Below are positions 9,993 through 16,362 of a stretch of 64,000 nt of DNA, piece after piece. Below the pieces are notes generated by a model that had not been told where the DNA came from, ran no database searches, and saw only the letters and a list, made by a program, of their open reading frames with translations. The position numbers were made by a program, and so were the translations under genes. This DNA is from an uncultured Candidatus Binatia bacterium (GTDB lineage Bacteria; Desulfobacterota; Binatia; Bin18), in the NCBI GenBank assembly GCA_965200965.1, contig OZ241744.1, positions 2,528,001 to 2,592,000 on the forward strand, given 5' to 3'. How positions within the stretch are numbered: position 1 is the first letter of the stretch; each line of letters opens with the position of its first letter.

Positions 9993-11678
9993 ATGACGCT
10001 GCCACGCCGACAGTTTTTGCGCTATCTGGGGATAGGAAGCTACGCGGCGCTGTGCCATCCGCTGCGCCTCGCCGCGGCTGCGCCAAGAACAGGCGGCTCG
10101 GTCTGGAAGCCGGATTTTTTTGATCCCATCTCTCCCAGCACTGCCGACCGGCTCAGGCTGCCGACCGGCTATCGCTCTGACCTGCTCGGCGTGTGGGGCG
10201 ACAAGTTGGGCCTTCCCGACCCGGCCCACGCACTGACCTTCGGTCATAACAACGACTTTCTGGCCTATTTCCCGCTTGCCTCCCGGCAGGACGACCTCCT
10301 GGCCGAGCAGGGATTGCTGTGGGTCAACCACGAGTATCCCAACCCGCTGTTTGTCAGCGGCTACAGCCGTGCGGACGCCGAGGCCGACACGCCTAAAACC
10401 GCGGAGCAGATACAGGCCGAAAAGCGCAGTGTGGGCGGCAGCGTGCTACACCTCAGACGGCAGGCGAACGGACGCTGGAAGCGCGAGTATCATCCCCGCT
10501 TTACCCGCCGCTTCACTGCCTGCGGCCCCCGTATTGGTTTTGATGGGCCGGCAGCCGAAGCTGTCGCCAGCCTGAGTGGCAGCCAGGACTGCCCCGGTAC
10601 GCTGGCCAACTGCTCGGGCGGTGTCACGCCTTGGGACAGCGTGCTGTCGTGCGAAGAAAACTACCAGTTCTACAATTCCAGATTGCGGTGGCGGGATCAG
10701 CCCGACGAAGCCATTATTGCAAAGCAGTTCGGCTGGGTGGTTGAGGTAGACCCCTTTGGCGAACTGCCGCCGGTCAAGCACACCAGCCTGGGCCGCTTCA
10801 GCCATGAGAATGTCGCCCTGCGCTGGGCCGGGCCGGCCGGCCGGTTGGTGGTCTATATGGGTGACGACCGGGCCGGTGAATTTGTGTACAAGTTTGTCAG
10901 CGCCCAGCCGTTTTCCGCCTCGGTCCCACGGCTTGAGCAGCGGGCGGCGCTGAGCCAGGGGACCTTGTACGCTGCCGACTTTCAGCGTGGCAGGTGGCTG
11001 GCGCTGGACTGGGAGAAGAACCGCGACAAGTGGCAGCAGTACAACACAGGGCGGAGAGAAAACGAACCGGCCATCACCTCGCAGGCCGATATTCTCATCC
11101 ATACCCGGGTTGCGGCGCGTGTCCTGGGAGCAACGCCCCTGGACCGGCCCGAGGACTGTGAAATCCATCCGGCCGACGGTTCAGTGTATATTGCGCTGAC
11201 CAATAATACCGGGCGGGGCAACTTCTACGGCCAGATTGTGCGGCTGATGGAAGACAACGATAATCCTGAGGGAGAGCGCTTTCGGTTTGAGCTGTTCCTG
11301 CTCGGCGGACGCGAGAGCGGCTTGGCCTGCCCCGATAATCTGGCCTTTGACAGGCGGGGAAACTTATGGGTGGCGTGCGATATCGGAAGCTCCCAGCTAG
11401 GGCAAGACCCGTATCAGGCGTTTGGCAACAACGGGCTGTTTGTCGTGCCCACCACCGGCCCCGGAGCCGGCCAAGCCTGGCAGTTCGCATCCGGTCCCAT
11501 CGGCTGTGAACTCACCGGCCCGTGGTTCAACCCCAACGACCGGACGCTGTTCCTGTCCGTTCAGCATCCGGGAGAAAACAGCCCCAGCCTCGACCGGCTG
11601 TCGAGCCACTGGCCACACGGCGGTCAGGACCTCCCCCGCCCGGCTGTGGTGGCCATCACCGGCTTTGAGCGGTCTTGA
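9993..11678 (+). CDS. phoX: PhoX-family alkaline phosphatase, Tat-exported
   Basis: PRRQFL twin-arginine signal; NHEY, NCSGG.TPW, SCEEN, DRPED, CELTGP, SVQHPGE. Confidence 0.93.
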   Translation: MTLPRRQFLRYLGIGSYAALCHPLRLAAAAPRTGGSVWKPDFFDPISPSTADRLRLPTGYRSDLLGVWGDKLGLPDPAHALTFGHNNDFLAYFPLASRQDDLLAEQGLLWVNHEYPNPLFVSGYSRADAEADTPKTAEQIQAEKRSVGGSVLHLRRQANGRWKREYHPRFTRRFTACGPRIGFDGPAAEAVASLSGSQDCPGTLANCSGGVTPWDSVLSCEENYQFYNSRLRWRDQPDEAIIAKQFGWVVEVDPFGELPPVKHTSLGRFSHENVALRWAGPAGRLVVYMGDDRAGEFVYKFVSAQPFSASVPRLEQRAALSQGTLYAADFQRGRWLALDWEKNRDKWQQYNTGRRENEPAITSQADILIHTRVAARVLGATPLDRPEDCEIHPADGSVYIALTNNTGRGNFYGQIVRLMEDNDNPEGERFRFELFLLGGRESGLACPDNLAFDRRGNLWVACDIGSSQLGQDPYQAFGNNGLFVVPTTGPGAGQAWQFASGPIGCELTGPWFNPNDRTLFLSVQHPGENSPSLDRLSSHWPHGGQDLPRPAVVAITGFERS

Positions 11679-11689
11679 ACGGGCCGCCT

Positions 11690-12043
11690 TCAGGGCCGTG
11701 TGTCGGCTTTCGGTATGACCCGGGGATGCTCATACCCTTTGGGCGGTTTCCGGCAGCCCCACTGCCAGGACGGCGTATCCTGCAAGGCTCGCTCAAGCTC
11801 GTCCATGTCGTCATCCCCGAGCTGGGTGGGAAAATAGTCGGATAAAATTCGGCGTGCTCTCGACAGTTTGTGCCAGATGTTCCACTGGTCAAGAAACTCG
11901 ACGGTCGTCTTGTCGCAGCCCTCTTGCCCGAGTTCTGCATAACAAGAGCCAATACGGTCCAACGACACCACGACAGTCTCCAGGGTGCTCAGCACCTCAA
12001 TCAGGTCCGCCTTTTTTATGCTCAAGCGTTCTTCCGTTTGCAT
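11690..12043 (-). CDS. Hypothetical protein, probable immunity protein
   Basis: Small acidic ORF directly downstream of the toxin-like gene, GAGGG RBS; function inferred from position. Confidence 0.55.
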   Translation of the reverse strand: MQTEERLSIKKADLIEVLSTLETVVVSLDRIGSCYAELGQEGCDKTTVEFLDQWNIWHKLSRARRILSDYFPTQLGDDDMDELERALQDTPSWQWGCRKPPKGYEHPRVIPKADTRP

Positions 12044-12053
12044 GTCACCCTCG

Positions 12054-13541
12054 TCAGTCTCTCTGCACGACCTCTGCGCGCTTTGGGTCAAGGCGAATAT
12101 CACCGGATATCTTCCACTCCTTCCTCCGAGTCACCGGATTATATACCTCTTTAACCTGTGTGCCTTTTGGGGCTTCGAATACGACATAATCGCGGCCGCG
12201 GCCCGGCCTCAGACCAAGTGCATCTTCTGCGTCAGCTCGTGACAATACCCGCTCTCTCGCTGGCACAACGAAGACCGTGTTCCGTTTATCGGCCTTGATA
12301 ACCCCCTCCTTTGCAATGGCATTTGACCCTTTCCTGTTCGTGTAGTGTCTGAGGGCACGGGGACCTTTGATATGTTTGCCGCCGCGCGTGACAATTTTGA
12401 TCAAAGGTTTCCCGCCCGGAATTACGCTGCCAGCGAGCCCTACCAGGGCCATTGGTTTACTCACCAGTTCATCCGTTACCGGGTCCTTGCCGCTGACCAA
12501 TTCGACGACAGACTTCCCAAAGCCCAACCCGGGTGTAAGGTCCGCGAGAAGACTGAATACCTGTTTCTCCAGCGGTGGAGTTGTGGACGGTGGCGGCAGT
12601 GCAGGCCGGCCCGGAGGAGGTACAACAGAGGGAGGAATTGTGGTCAAAGTATCTGTTCGCCCCCGCTTGGGCGGCAGTGCAGGCCGGCCCGGAGGAGGTA
12701 CAACAGGGCTGAGATCGGCAGGAACGATTGCTGTAACGCTCCCGGTATCCAGCGGCCGGCAGCGGTCTCCTCCCAAGTCACAGCGGAGTGGAGGCAATCC
12801 GGCTGCGATTTGGCGAAGTTGACTTCTCATCTGGGCCGCCTCTTTGACATCGGCCAACGGCTCAGTGGCTTCGCGGATAACCTGCTGCATCTCAATGAGC
12901 CGGCACGTTCCGTCTTTGCAGACTTCAATGGTGCCCTGATACTGCTCCCGCATATGCCAGCCGTCTTGGGGCGGTGTGGAGTCGGTCGGGGTTTGGTTGG
13001 CAGGCGCGGTCTCGGGTGGCGTTTGGCCGGTGGCCGTGGTCTCAGGCGGTGGCGACTCAGGGACGAATTCTTGAGCCAGGGCGAGAGTCAAGGAGACAAC
13101 TTGCAGGAATTTGGCCCAGGCGTGTAGCGGCTCGTCCTGTTTGGCCAAGTCAATGACGCGGGCCAATTCCTCATCGAGTTCTGCGCGTCTCTCAGCGAAT
13201 TCTTTGTGTATCTCAGCGGATTCTGCATACAGTTCACGCCACCTTTGGCGGTCGGCTTCCAGGGGAGCCACCACTTCTTGCGTCTCGGCGCGGAGCTTGG
13301 CGTCTCGGAGCCTTTGCCTGGCCTCTCTGGCTTGCCCGGCTTCCCTTTCAGCCGTACCCAGCGGATCCTCGCGGTATGACGGTGGAAGATTTTCCTTGAG
13401 GGCCTTGTCGGCAGCATCGATATTTAATGTAAATCGCGGTGTGGCGACGCCGGGACTGCCAGCCAACACGATGCCGATCAGCATCACGCCGGCGATGCCA
13501 CGGCAGGGCAGAGGGTGCAGGGGTGAGATGATTGAGGTCAT
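12054..13541 (-). CDS. Putative secreted polymorphic toxin (signal-like N-terminus, coiled coil, pre-toxin TG-like segment, C-terminal HYD1-type ADP-ribosyltransferase-like domain)
   Basis: LADLTPGLGFGKSVVELVSGKDPVTDE resembles PT-TG; LRHYTNRKGSNAIAKEGVI resembles the Tox-ART-HYD1 N-terminus. Confidence 0.65.
   Translation of the reverse strand: MTSIISPLHPLPCRGIAGVMLIGIVLAGSPGVATPRFTLNIDAADKALKENLPPSYREDPLGTAEREAGQAREARQRLRDAKLRAETQEVVAPLEADRQRWRELYAESAEIHKEFAERRAELDEELARVIDLAKQDEPLHAWAKFLQVVSLTLALAQEFVPESPPPETTATGQTPPETAPANQTPTDSTPPQDGWHMREQYQGTIEVCKDGTCRLIEMQQVIREATEPLADVKEAAQMRSQLRQIAAGLPPLRCDLGGDRCRPLDTGSVTAIVPADLSPVVPPPGRPALPPKRGRTDTLTTIPPSVVPPPGRPALPPPSTTPPLEKQVFSLLADLTPGLGFGKSVVELVSGKDPVTDELVSKPMALVGLAGSVIPGGKPLIKIVTRGGKHIKGPRALRHYTNRKGSNAIAKEGVIKADKRNTVFVVPARERVLSRADAEDALGLRPGRGRDYVVFEAPKGTQVKEVYNPVTRRKEWKISGDIRLDPKRAEVVQRD
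12592..12706. repeat. 37-bp perfect direct repeat (12592-12628, 12670-12706) encoding VVPPPGRPALPP
   Basis: GGCGGCAGTGCAGGCCGGCCCGGAGGAGGTACAACAG occurs twice. Confidence 0.95.
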
Positions 13542-13572
13542 ACGTTTTCCTCTTTACTCCTGGTGAGGAGTG

Positions 13573-14763
13573 TCAGTAACAAGGGGGGCAGCACCAAGAA
13601 TTGTACTTAGTGTGGGGGCGCAAATACGAGGGAGGCCGTTTGTAGACGTATCGCCGGATATCAGTTTCAAGATCTTTCCAGTACGGATCGAAAGGAGAGT
13701 TCCTCCCATTCATCTTTGCCATTGCTAGAAGGTCCGGGGCCGGATGCTGACCCAGCACCTTGAGGATGCCTTCAGCGATGGAGAACAAGACTATCGCGAT
13801 TTCCTCCCTGTGCTCACGAACGCGGGTGTTCTTTCGAAATGAGTTCAGCAGTGTATGTAGTTCATCCTTGATATCGGACCAGACCACGCGCGTGCAAACA
13901 GTGAACCAAGTCGAGATGCCCACATGACAGTTGGAACCTTCTCTCCCGGAGTCAATGCCCTGTCCTTCTACTGCACAGGTGCTGCGGGGGGGGGGGGTAT
14001 GATAGCTTAGCTGCAGATCCCGGAAACGGCGTTGCCATGAGGAGAGCTCATCTTGATCAGCATACCAGAGAGCCTTAAATTGAGAATAAATCGATCCCTG
14101 TCTTGTCTCGCTGATGGCTTGTCGGAAGTACACCTGGTATGCTTTAGTGCGCTGTTCTATCTCGATTTCTTCAGCTTCCAGGCCCTTACCCAGGCCCTTA
14201 AGAAGAGCGATCTCGTAGGCCATCCCAACCAGGATAAGGGGGGCGTTCAAATACCCACGCTTCATCAGCGTCCTGGTCTCGGTCTGCAATTCCCTGAGGC
14301 GATCTCTGGGGTCAGTAGAAAGCTCTCCGCCCTCCCGTATAACAGTAAAGTCCTCGACGATCAGGTCTACTATTCCAAGGACCCGAGCCTGCTGAAATTC
14401 GTCAAGAGCATCTCTGAGCTCCTTCCGCATAATCTCGGGCAATGCATCAAGTTTGTGCAGGGCCTCCTCCATCGCCTTGCCAAAATTATCAAACCGCTCA
14501 TGCAGTTGACCGATCAATTTGTGGTTCTGCAAGATCGCTTGGTAATTCTGCTGGTTCAACTCTCGGATCTGCCTAATCCTTTCCGCGGTTGGGTCTGCGC
14601 CGGATGTGAAGAGAGACAGTACGGTACTCATAAGCGACACCCCAATCACCGCTATTGTGAGTGGCTCAGCGCCGTTCAGCCGGGGCGGGTGCAGCAATGA
14701 CGTACCATAGATGAGGCAAACTGCTGCGAAAACAAGGCGATAGCGGCGTGCAACCTGTGTCAT
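13573..14763 (-). CDS. Hypothetical exported or membrane protein (signal peptide, hydrophobic helix, coiled coil, Cys-rich C-terminus)
   Basis: Long ORF, visibly more AT-rich than flanks; likely start MTQVARR. Confidence 0.7.
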   Translation of the reverse strand: MTQVARRYRLVFAAVCLIYGTSLLHPPRLNGAEPLTIAVIGVSLMSTVLSLFTSGADPTAERIRQIRELNQQNYQAILQNHKLIGQLHERFDNFGKAMEEALHKLDALPEIMRKELRDALDEFQQARVLGIVDLIVEDFTVIREGGELSTDPRDRLRELQTETRTLMKRGYLNAPLILVGMAYEIALLKGLGKGLEAEEIEIEQRTKAYQVYFRQAISETRQGSIYSQFKALWYADQDELSSWQRRFRDLQLSYHTPPPRSTCAVEGQGIDSGREGSNCHVGISTWFTVCTRVVWSDIKDELHTLLNSFRKNTRVREHREEIAIVLFSIAEGILKVLGQHPAPDLLAMAKMNGRNSPFDPYWKDLETDIRRYVYKRPPSYLRPHTKYNSWCCPPCY

Positions 14764-14907
14764 GGTTGGGAATCCTGTTCGTGGTCGGCCCATCCAAGCA
14801 CAGGTCAGGCTTCCCGTCAAGTAATTTTTCTGGACGCACGGCGGAGGTCCTGGCCGTCGAATTTCGGCCCTGGATCGTGCGATGGGCATCACGCACAAAT
14901 AACCGGC

Positions 14908-14941
14908 CTGTCATTCTCCAGTAATAGTGCGTTCTTACCCT
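14908..14941 (+). promoter_or_regulatory. Pho box plus -10 element of the porin-pst operon
   Basis: CTGTCAT-tctc-CAGTAAT, 10-bp spacer, then TACCCT; matches the known PhoB promoter geometry. Confidence 0.7.
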
Positions 14942-14985: not shown

Positions 14986-16362
14986 ATGGAGAGACGAGGC
15001 AGCCTGCTGGGCAGTGTTGTTGCCGGAGGACTCTTGCTGGCAAGCCCCGCTTTTGCGCAGGAGAAAAGCGTGGCGGTCGAGATTCTCGACATCCTCAAGG
15101 CCAACGGCCAGATCAGCGACGATCAGTACCGCACCCTGATGAAGAAGGCCGAGGCCGAAGGCGAAAAGGGTGAGGACGCGGTCGCCCAGAGTGCAGCACA
15201 AAAGCCCGACCCCAAGACGATGCGTGTCTACTGGTCATCCGGTCTGCGGATGAAGTCCAAGGACGGCAATTTTTCGCTCAAGGTCGGCGGCCGGATCATG
15301 AACGACTGGGCCATCTACAGCACGGACAGCGACACGCCGGACACGTTTCGGAAAATCGGCGATGGCACAGAGTTCCGCCGGGCGCGGCTGTACATGGAAG
15401 GCGAGGTGTATACAAACATCAAGTACAAAGCCCAGTACGACTTTGGCGGTCAAGACGCCGACTTCAAAGATGTGTACATTGAGTTGAAAAAAATCCCCAC
15501 CCTGGGCAATCTCAGGATCGGGCATTTCAAGGAGCCGATGTCGATCGAAGAGCTGACCAGCAGCAAGTACATCACCTTTATGGAACGCTCGCTGCCCAAC
15601 GTATTTGCTCAGGGTCGGAACACCGGCTTCCAGATTGCGAACAGTTTTGCCGACAAGCGGGCGACCGCAGCGGTCGGCGTGTTCCGGGATGTGGGCGACT
15701 CGGGCAATGGGTTCAGCAAGAGCTTCGACTATAATGTCACCGCCCGGATCACCGCCCTGCCGTGGTATGAGGACAAGGGCAAGCGGCTGCTGCATGTCGG
15801 CTTTGGTTACACCCACGAATTCCGCCATGATGAAGACAGCATGATCCGTTTTCGGGCGCGGCCGGAAGCCCATCTGGGGCCACGCTTTGTTGACACCAGG
15901 GCGTTCAAAGCCAAGAGCGTCAATTATTTCAACCCTGAGTTTGCCGCGGTCTACGGGCCGTTCTCGCTCCAGGGCGAATACATCTTCACCGAGGTGAACT
16001 CAAAAGAGTATGACGACCCGAGTTTTGACGGGTCCTACATCTACGGCAGTGTATTCCTGACCCCGGGCGACTATCGTCGCTACAAGACCTCCAGCGGGGC
16101 CTTTGACCGGGTCAAGCCGGCTGACGATTTGAGTTGGAGCGGCGGCGGTATCGGGGCGATTGAGGCCGCGGTCCGCTATTCCCAACTGGACCTGACTGAC
16201 GGCATGATCAGGGGCGGGACGCTCAGCAACATCACCGCGGGGCTCAACTGGTACCTGAACCCGAATGTCCGCTTCATGCTGAACTACGTCTACGCCGACC
16301 AGCAGCACCCCTACGACTTTGAGGCCGACATCATCCAGATGCGCGCCCAGATTGATTTCTAA
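14986..16362 (+). CDS. Phosphate-selective porin OprO/OprP family
   Basis: Signal peptide; GTEFRRARL, GHFKEPMSIEELTSS, TAGLNWYLNPN, terminal F. Confidence 0.92.
   Translation: MERRGSLLGSVVAGGLLLASPAFAQEKSVAVEILDILKANGQISDDQYRTLMKKAEAEGEKGEDAVAQSAAQKPDPKTMRVYWSSGLRMKSKDGNFSLKVGGRIMNDWAIYSTDSDTPDTFRKIGDGTEFRRARLYMEGEVYTNIKYKAQYDFGGQDADFKDVYIELKKIPTLGNLRIGHFKEPMSIEELTSSKYITFMERSLPNVFAQGRNTGFQIANSFADKRATAAVGVFRDVGDSGNGFSKSFDYNVTARITALPWYEDKGKRLLHVGFGYTHEFRHDEDSMIRFRARPEAHLGPRFVDTRAFKAKSVNYFNPEFAAVYGPFSLQGEYIFTEVNSKEYDDPSFDGSYIYGSVFLTPGDYRRYKTSSGAFDRVKPADDLSWSGGGIGAIEAAVRYSQLDLTDGMIRGGTLSNITAGLNWYLNPNVRFMLNYVYADQQHPYDFEADIIQMRAQIDF

Follow-up and report, generated by a model that had tools for sequence, protein, structure and literature searches.

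A probable polymorphic toxin-immunity locus with a conserved leader lacking library matches in an uncultured Candidatus Binatia bacterium

Constant leader and interchangeable toxin tips

The locus described here consists of three genes in a 64,000-nucleotide stretch (the window; assembly GCA_965200965.1, contig OZ241744.1, positions 2,528,001 to 2,592,000) of an uncultured Candidatus Binatia bacterium, whose genome is labeled G000. In this order on the minus strand, they encode a 396-amino-acid (aa) upstream protein (P0002), a 495-aa toxin (P0001), and a 117-aa protein (P0003); the flanking genes, phoX and a porin gene, are on the plus strand. Other labels beginning with G, P, X, and L denote genomes, proteins, sequencing runs, and DNA stretches. 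We regard it as probable that these genes form an antibacterial polymorphic toxin-immunity locus, with predicted signal-peptide export of the toxin behind a conserved leader that has no library match. The domain order, the constant leader with swapped tips, the tip-specific downstream genes, and the orphan cassettes in relatives were observed directly in the sequences compared. A preliminary description of this DNA had proposed three open reading frames (ORFs) on one strand between phoX and the porin gene, and these were recovered (Table 1).

As anticipated in that description, the N-terminus of P0001 is hydrophobic, and the protein has an extended predicted helix (aa 62-158), paired Cys residues, a Pro-rich linker, a PT-TG pre-toxin domain (E 4.6e-7, 30.2 bits against a Pfam cut-off of 23.5), and a HYD1 tip. 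Its N-terminal part of about 230-265 aa, referred to as the leader, had no match in Pfam or NCBIfam and no usable match in the ESM Atlas, in agreement with its earlier designation as an uncharacterised domain. A search with aa 1-280 of P0001 against 1.84 billion representatives gave 13 matches, including 12 genuine relatives (nine full-length), and a subsequent search with the family profile added five more (four full-length). The resulting family contains 14 full-length proteins of 381-495 aa. The candidate P0015 was excluded as an artefact of repeats, and the family leaves out matches in G000 (L004 and L005) and in G023. At L004:280-1809 (G000:C1, about 2,995,000-2,996,500), at least three near-identical CCDC90-like coiled-coil genes are arranged in tandem, with differing repeat numbers. 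A whole-protein word search with P0001 matched only P0001 itself, and pattern scans for additional loci in genome, metagenome, and viral contigs found none.

All 14 full-length proteins have a signal-like hydrophobic start (a hydrophobic 12-mer with Kyte-Doolittle values of 2.0-3.5, from aa 11-21) according to a heuristic, which also gave an n-region charge of at least +1 in 12 of them. In every member, a coiled coil comes next and leads into a hydrophobic helix, which is conserved, and then into a module containing Cys pairs; the pair 208/213 is present in 13 members and the pair 254/261 in 11. A PT-TG domain was found in nine. The C-terminal tips belong to six or seven types: HYD1 (four proteins), one unnamed type (four), HicA (two), colicin E5 (one), CdiA-type (one), and two unassigned singletons, one of which weakly resembles the unnamed type. 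The C-termini of P0007, P0008, P0023, P0024, P0014, and P0021 make up two or three tip types without a library match and are candidate new toxin domains.

Five leaders that are 68-80% identical carry three different tips, and in nine of the ten pairs the tips are 14-27% identical. In the leader tree (eight of the 11 inner branches are open), leaders with the unnamed tip fall on either side of a branch with 100/100 support, and the sister proteins P0011 and P0017 have HYD1 and E5 tips, respectively. A constant N-terminus joined to interchangeable C-terminal toxin domains is the hallmark of polymorphic toxins, and the earlier expectation that homologs would share the former and differ in the latter was thus borne out. 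Among 401 genomes of the class, four were matched by the family profile, only G000 and G228 via the leader; in a phylum sample of 401 genomes, G000 was the single match.

Fold and catalytic positions of the HYD1 tip

The tip of P0001 was assigned by Pfam to Tox-ART-HYD1 (PF15633; aa 397-484, E 3e-8, 34.6 bits against a cut-off of 25). The AlphaFold model of P0001 has a mean predicted local distance difference test (pLDDT) score of 51, with confident regions limited to the tip and the coiled coil. Foldseek searches with this model returned Tpt1/KptA, CC0527, and TreTu at ranks 1-15 (E 0.005-0.04). In VIA, the tip matched Tne2 (Z 7.6, root-mean-square deviation [rmsd] 3.0, 93 residues aligned), Agrobacterium 6b (Z 7.5, rmsd 4.2, 109 aligned), KptA (Z 7.1, rmsd 2.7, 84 aligned), CC0527 (Z 7.1, rmsd 3.6, 93 aligned), and TreTu (Z 6.7, rmsd 3.1, 86 aligned), all of which we take to be proteins with an ADP-ribosyltransferase (ART) fold. 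These best matches agree with the ART fold that had been proposed for the C-terminus, and the modelled tip appears to adopt this fold, each match being of modest score.

H399 is invariant among the aligned tips, and its distance to F424 is the same as that between H8 and Y33 of Tre23 (25 residues); E475 was assigned to the predicted triad by alignment alone. Phe occupies the second triad position in three of the seven aligned tips. The HYD1 family motif permits Phe at this position (Zhang 2012, PMC3482391), and Tre23, a member that has been tested, ADP-ribosylates 23S rRNA (PMC8661411). Because Phe replaces the Tyr of Tre23, the activity and target of the P0001 tip are uncertain.

Immunity gene and orphan cassettes

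Three kinds of evidence favour reading the small acidic ORF downstream of the toxin as an immunity gene: its gene context, the selection acting on it, and a complex prediction of weak support. The product, P0003, matched no Pfam or NCBIfam family. Its homologs (49-87% identity) were found in three of 55 genomes of the host family and in G268, and in all four genomes they lie directly behind a HYD1 tip. In the family to which G268 belongs, the immunity profile matched one of 28 genomes. Between G000 and G007, dN/dS is 0.26 for the immunity gene, 0.28 for phoX, and 0.21 for the porin gene, against 0.84 for the orphan tip. The immunity gene is under purifying selection and is retained in strains that have a frameshifted or truncated toxin. 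Its conservation despite a broken toxin fits attack by neighbouring bacteria. The predicted complex of P0003 with the tip scored 0.56 (best control 0.00), with 97% contact agreement and a partner pLDDT of at least 84. Of 157 solved pairs, 116 attained the mark applied, as did two of 215 mismatched pairs, and the passing scores of 0.60 or lower comprise 18 of the 157 solved pairs and both mismatches. P0003 likely represents a new immunity family for HYD1 tips, for which Imm-My6CBD has been listed as an immunity protein (Zhang 2012, PMC3482391).

Small genes directly downstream are specific to the tip: the P0003 family accompanies HYD1 in four of four genomes, and a CPCC protein accompanies a CdiA-type tip in G228. 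Orphan tip-immunity cassettes were found in G007, G228, and G268, and none was found in G000 itself. The orphan tips of G007 and G268 start near the end of PT-TG. In G228, the second orphan tip is of the CdiA type, is 60% identical to the tip of a family member, and matches PDB 8EY4 (E 4e-28). This tip and its CPCC gene (L020:11815-12470) are about 500 bp past the HYD1-immunity pair, forming a small cassette array. In G268 (L021:8336-9855), the reading frame of the orphan HYD1 tip overlaps the stop of a thiolase-like gene and is followed by the immunity homolog and a pair resembling a PIN-domain toxin-antitoxin system.

The upstream exported protein

P0002 had been described as an exported helical protein of no known family, and we found no Pfam or NCBIfam match, a signal-like start by the heuristic, and an all-helical prediction. 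The protein has a twin-Arg signal-like start, a hydrophobic helix at aa 34-55, a coiled coil, and a conserved core that extends to aa ~195; its C-terminal half is variable and bears Cys residues. Two other clusters of the family are 57 and 41% identical to it overall, with 77 and 53% identity at aa 83-195 and only 24-35% beyond aa 196. Export of P0002 by the Tat pathway is conceivable, as twin Arg residues are present in all four starts of the family and G000 encodes TatC, but the motif is non-canonical. A consensus lipobox was not found in P0002, and the G228 remnant described below lacks the Cys.

Comparison of eight sequencing runs linked P0002 to the toxin at the strain level. X1 and X4 resemble the window at this locus. 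X3, X5, and X6 have a divergent P0002 allele, and a single X5 contig spans this allele and the toxin, with the listed indels in frame; P0002 is thus beside an intact toxin in two haplotypes. In X7, X9, and X11, position 13575 is joined to 14878, such that P0002 is exactly removed, and the toxin is frameshifted. In G228, a 27-aa remnant of the P0002 signal region is located 60 bp before a decayed toxin. In 401 genomes of the class, P0002 was never found apart from the toxin. P0002 and the toxin leader showed no homology (hhalign 0.9%).

The P0002 model, built from three sequences, has a pLDDT of 53, and at this low confidence it matched Cry11Aa (Z 8.6, rmsd 5.5, 165 aligned), ranked below generic helical bundles. 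As weak leads to helical pore-forming domains, ESM features pointed at low recognition to DUF684 (0.86), CTXL_M (0.84), and Endotoxin_N (0.81), and the MLA10 coiled coil was matched at E 0.037. The case for P0002 as a functional partner of the toxin is, in our judgment, evenly balanced; a role as a translocating pore is less likely than a partner role in general.

Export route and proposed mechanism

Signal peptides in place of a leader for type VI or type VII secretion (T6SS or T7SS) or of the Rhs type had been proposed, and the signal-like starts noted above are in line with this. P0001 has no PAAR, VgrG, Rhs, or FHA domain in Pfam. LXG, WXG, and MafB had no match at E up to 0.05 in any family member scanned. 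In G000, which is 99.3% complete, VipB (the T6SS sheath), WXG100, and a phage sheath were not found, and the controls were detected. The host is a diderm with a porin and GspD. For the type II secretion system (T2SS) of G000, GspD and GspM scored over the cut-off and GspF slightly under it; HYD1 has been listed with T2SS export (Zhang 2012, PMC3482391). A second, atypical secretin (876 aa) is encoded at L028:8531-15394 of G000 in an operon without NCBIfam matches.

We infer every biochemical step of the following mechanism. The Sec pathway would carry the toxin into the periplasm, where the Cys pairs would become disulfides, and the outer membrane may be crossed through the T2SS or with the aid of P0002. 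The Cys module, the variable C-terminal half of P0002, or both may bind the target cell, and the coiled coil and hydrophobic helix may then engage its membrane. The tip would be freed near the end of PT-TG and, once in the cytoplasm, would act like Tre23, using NAD+ for the ADP-ribosylation of RNA or part of the translation machinery. P0003 would bind the tip directly, shielding the producer and its kin.

A more elaborate version, which we consider unlikely, is a contact-independent delivery machine of two proteins directed at rival sponge symbionts. The N-terminal hydrophobic helix of P0002 would enter the target membrane and oligomerise into a translocation pore, its variable C-terminal half would select targets, and the coiled-coil/disulfide leader would dock on P0002 and thread nuclease or ADP-ribosyltransferase tips into the cytoplasm. 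If true, the locus would encode an AB-type toxin for conflict between bacteria, and both its delivery domain and its immunity family would be new.

Insertion site and flanking genes

P0001, P0002, and P0003 are each present in one copy in the 3.62-Mb G000. The GC content at third codon positions is 0.60-0.69 in the island genes and 0.46 in the toxin tip, compared with 0.75-0.79 in the flanking genes. A promoter and terminator scan of the locus gave signals at chance level only, and an Rfam search gave no match. The locus is present in sequencing runs labeled as sponge metagenome.

Table 1. Features of the locus, with positions in the window.
Feature	Position	Strand	Basis or remark
phoX alkaline phosphatase, left flank, outside the system	9993..11678	+	Pfam
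P0003, likely immunity protein, acidic (isoelectric point 5.0)	11690..12043	-	117 aa, without known family
P0001, polymorphic toxin gene, entire ORF	12054..13541	-	495 aa
Tox-ART-HYD1 tip, aa 397-495; H399, F424, and E475 at predicted triad positions	12054..12353	-	Pfam, alignment, model
PT-TG pre-toxin domain, aa 325-379	12405..12569	-	Pfam
Pro-rich linker, internally duplicated; duplication shorter in other strains	12570..12746	-	
Leader part 2, conserved; Cys pairs 208/213 and 254/261 in a module predicted as beta-hairpin/helix	12747..12968	-	model pLDDT about 45-50
Leader part 1, coiled coil aa 62-138 and terminal hydrophobic helix aa 139-160	13062..13358	-	conserved
Predicted Sec signal peptide, aa 1-33 of P0001	13443..13541	-	hydropathy/charge heuristic
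P0002, upstream exported protein, predicted all-helical, candidate partner	13573..14763	-	396 aa
Phosphate-selective porin O/P, right flank, outside the system	14986..16362	+	Pfam

The gap between phoX and the porin gene was compared in seven other genomes of the genus. The two genes directly adjoin in four, unrelated inserts were found in two (G006 and G007), and one is rearranged. The gap is an insertion hotspot. The G006 insert, an island of 10 kb (L009:2860-12850), carries a GmrSD-type gene (GmrSD_N), several ORFs without assignment, and an ORF split by insertion sequence (IS) elements that presumably encodes a PAPS-reductase-like product; the island is possibly a defence system. In G007, the gap contains, in order, a gene for an exported protein of 865 aa, a diverged duplicate of the phoX 3'-end, an N-terminally truncated HYD1 tip, and an immunity gene 83-87% identical to P0003. 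The 865-aa protein (L006:7101-9698) had no Pfam or NCBIfam match and has a Cys-rich N-terminal part and two C-terminal repeats of ~130 aa; its gene is followed by a 14-codon ORF cut by the phoX copy. Between G000 and G007, dS is 0.21 for the tip and immunity gene and 0.19-0.22 for the flanks; because these values are equal, the cassette is probably older than the split of the two genomes. G007 may have lost the front part of the cassette by recombination.

The preliminary description had placed the island inside a Pho cluster. The position between phoX and the porin gene stands and is judged incidental, with no Pho function indicated. We dismissed a functional link with the Pho regulon, as the island runs antisense to the Pho genes, relatives have an empty or otherwise filled gap, and the HYD1 cassette is located elsewhere in G228 and G268. 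A sequence upstream of the porin gene (window 14890-14935), which we take to be Pho-box-like, is kept in the empty-site genomes and undisturbed by the insert. At the other end (window 11690-11745), an inverted repeat of ~45 bp that follows the G007 immunity gene is missing in G000, and the immunity ORF therefore extends into the stretch just behind phoX. In X7, X9, and X11, this position has 408 different bases, probably corresponding to the 92-aa ORF P0032.

Alternative explanations

Several points weigh against an antibacterial ART toxin with P0002 as its partner. Signal peptides were called by a hydropathy and charge heuristic, not by SignalP, and the Cys module of the leader is modelled at low confidence (pLDDT about 45-50). 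The Foldseek rows never reach E 0.001, all VIA Z values are below 8, F424 is at the position of the essential Tyr33 of Tre23, and the top VIA match, Tne2, is presumably an NAD+ glycohydrolase. The P0002 family has three clusters compared with 14 leaders, with genomic context at hand for hardly any other leader. The loss of P0002 counts as one event because X7, X9, and X11 represent one haplotype, and the P0002-like remnant in G228 is short (E 4e-4 within 20 kb). It is possible, if somewhat doubtful, that the toxin-immunity pair is real and P0002 is an independent secreted protein at the same insertion site, e.g., an adhesin or a stand-alone helical pore-former. The unrelated inserts in G006 and G007, the weak leads to stand-alone helical pore-forming domains (CTXL_M, DUF684, Endotoxin_N, and MLA10), and the lack of homology to the leader would suit such a protein. 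However, P0002 adjoins the toxin in two divergent alleles and is gone exactly where the toxin is frameshifted, a remnant lies before the toxin of G228, which is from another genus and has the toxin at another locus, and no separate copy was seen in the 401 class genomes searched. The longest contigs are also equal in length for P0020 and P0006 (10,313) and for P0004 and P0033 (203,815), an unconfirmed hint of co-location.

The rank of Tne2 in VIA and the Phe at the Tyr position could also mean that the tip is a Tne2-like NAD+ glycohydrolase, or weak or inactive, rather than an ADP-ribosyltransferase of RNA or protein. We find this somewhat unlikely, as Tne2, 6b, KptA, and TreTu lie within 1 of one another in VIA Z, the leading Foldseek rows are the RNA-acting Tpt1/KptA, and the tip belongs to the Pfam family in which the tested member modifies 23S rRNA (PMC8661411). 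The presence of the locus in sponge-associated runs and the weak resemblance of P0002 to animal and insecticidal pore-forming domains might suggest a toxin aimed at a eukaryotic host or predators, with the downstream gene merely protecting the producer during synthesis. This is improbable given that the tips are RNase and ART domains of kinds typical of antibacterial toxins and that the immunity gene is under purifying selection even where the toxin is truncated or broken. Least probable is that the leader conceals a trafficking domain of the WXG/LXG (T7SS) type, or of another known kind, too divergent to be detected, and works with a Lap-like partner. A long coiled coil does precede PT-TG, a helical gene lies upstream, and cryptic WXG variants ahead of PT-TG are documented (PMC13483458), but the consistent signal-like starts, the conserved Cys pairs, the diderm host with porin and GspD, the failure to find WXG100 in G000, and the lack of LXG, WXG, and MafB matches in the scanned members all argue otherwise. 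We retain the antibacterial toxin-immunity locus as the preferred explanation.

Relation to known systems and significance

Polymorphic toxins that are exported by Sec and have lineage-specific N-terminal domains are a known class (Zhang 2012, PMC3482391). The locus works like MafA-MafB-MafI of Neisseria and is not a member of that system. As far as the available descriptions go, the two share an exported upstream protein, a toxin with a signal peptide, a constant N-terminal domain and variable tips, downstream immunity, and orphan tip-immunity cassettes (PMC3482391, PMC7738311), and the secretion of MafB requires MafA (Arenas 2020, PMC7738311). In contrast to MafB, the leader of P0001 comprises a coiled coil, a hydrophobic helix, and a Cys module, and DUF1020/MafB-N had no match at E up to 1 in P0001 or up to 0.05 in its homologs. 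The upstream protein differs as well: MafA is described as a non-polymorphic lipoprotein, whereas P0002 is predicted to be all-helical, lacks a family match and a consensus lipobox, and has a variable C-terminal half. The Microscilla-N and Amoebophilus APD1/APD2 toxins also combine a lineage-restricted constant N-terminal domain with polymorphic C-termini; going by their descriptions, they are from other phyla, and the APD proteins carry a lipobox and effectors directed at the host (PMC3482391). Tre23/Tri23 of Photorhabdus has a PF15633 tip, the same 25-residue His-aromatic spacing, and a small downstream immunity gene, but Tre23 differs in being carried by an Rhs/T6SS and in its second-position residue, which is Tyr (PMC8661411). 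The "PT-TG toxin" architectures (Pandoomain 2026, PMC13483458) share PT-TG with a tip, an unannotated N-terminus, and a diderm host; in its available portions, this survey resolves a T7SS-linked W10XG subset and does not describe a signal-peptide leader.

For PT-TG toxins that lack a known trafficking domain, the same survey treats the route of export and delivery in diderms as an open question (PMC13483458), and the locus is a compact, concrete candidate for such delivery. In the literature searched, we found no description of the leader and no studies of such toxin systems among sponge-associated bacteria; the supplementary tables of PMC13483458 may list some members. The constant leader with swapped tips likely indicates an undescribed toxin-delivery route. 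Because this leader of about 230 aa carries at least six unrelated tips, it constitutes a testable delivery module. The locus also yields a likely new HYD1 immunity family and two or three unnamed tip types, and the retention of immunity where the toxin has been lost provides strain-level evidence for bacterial warfare among sponge-associated bacteria.

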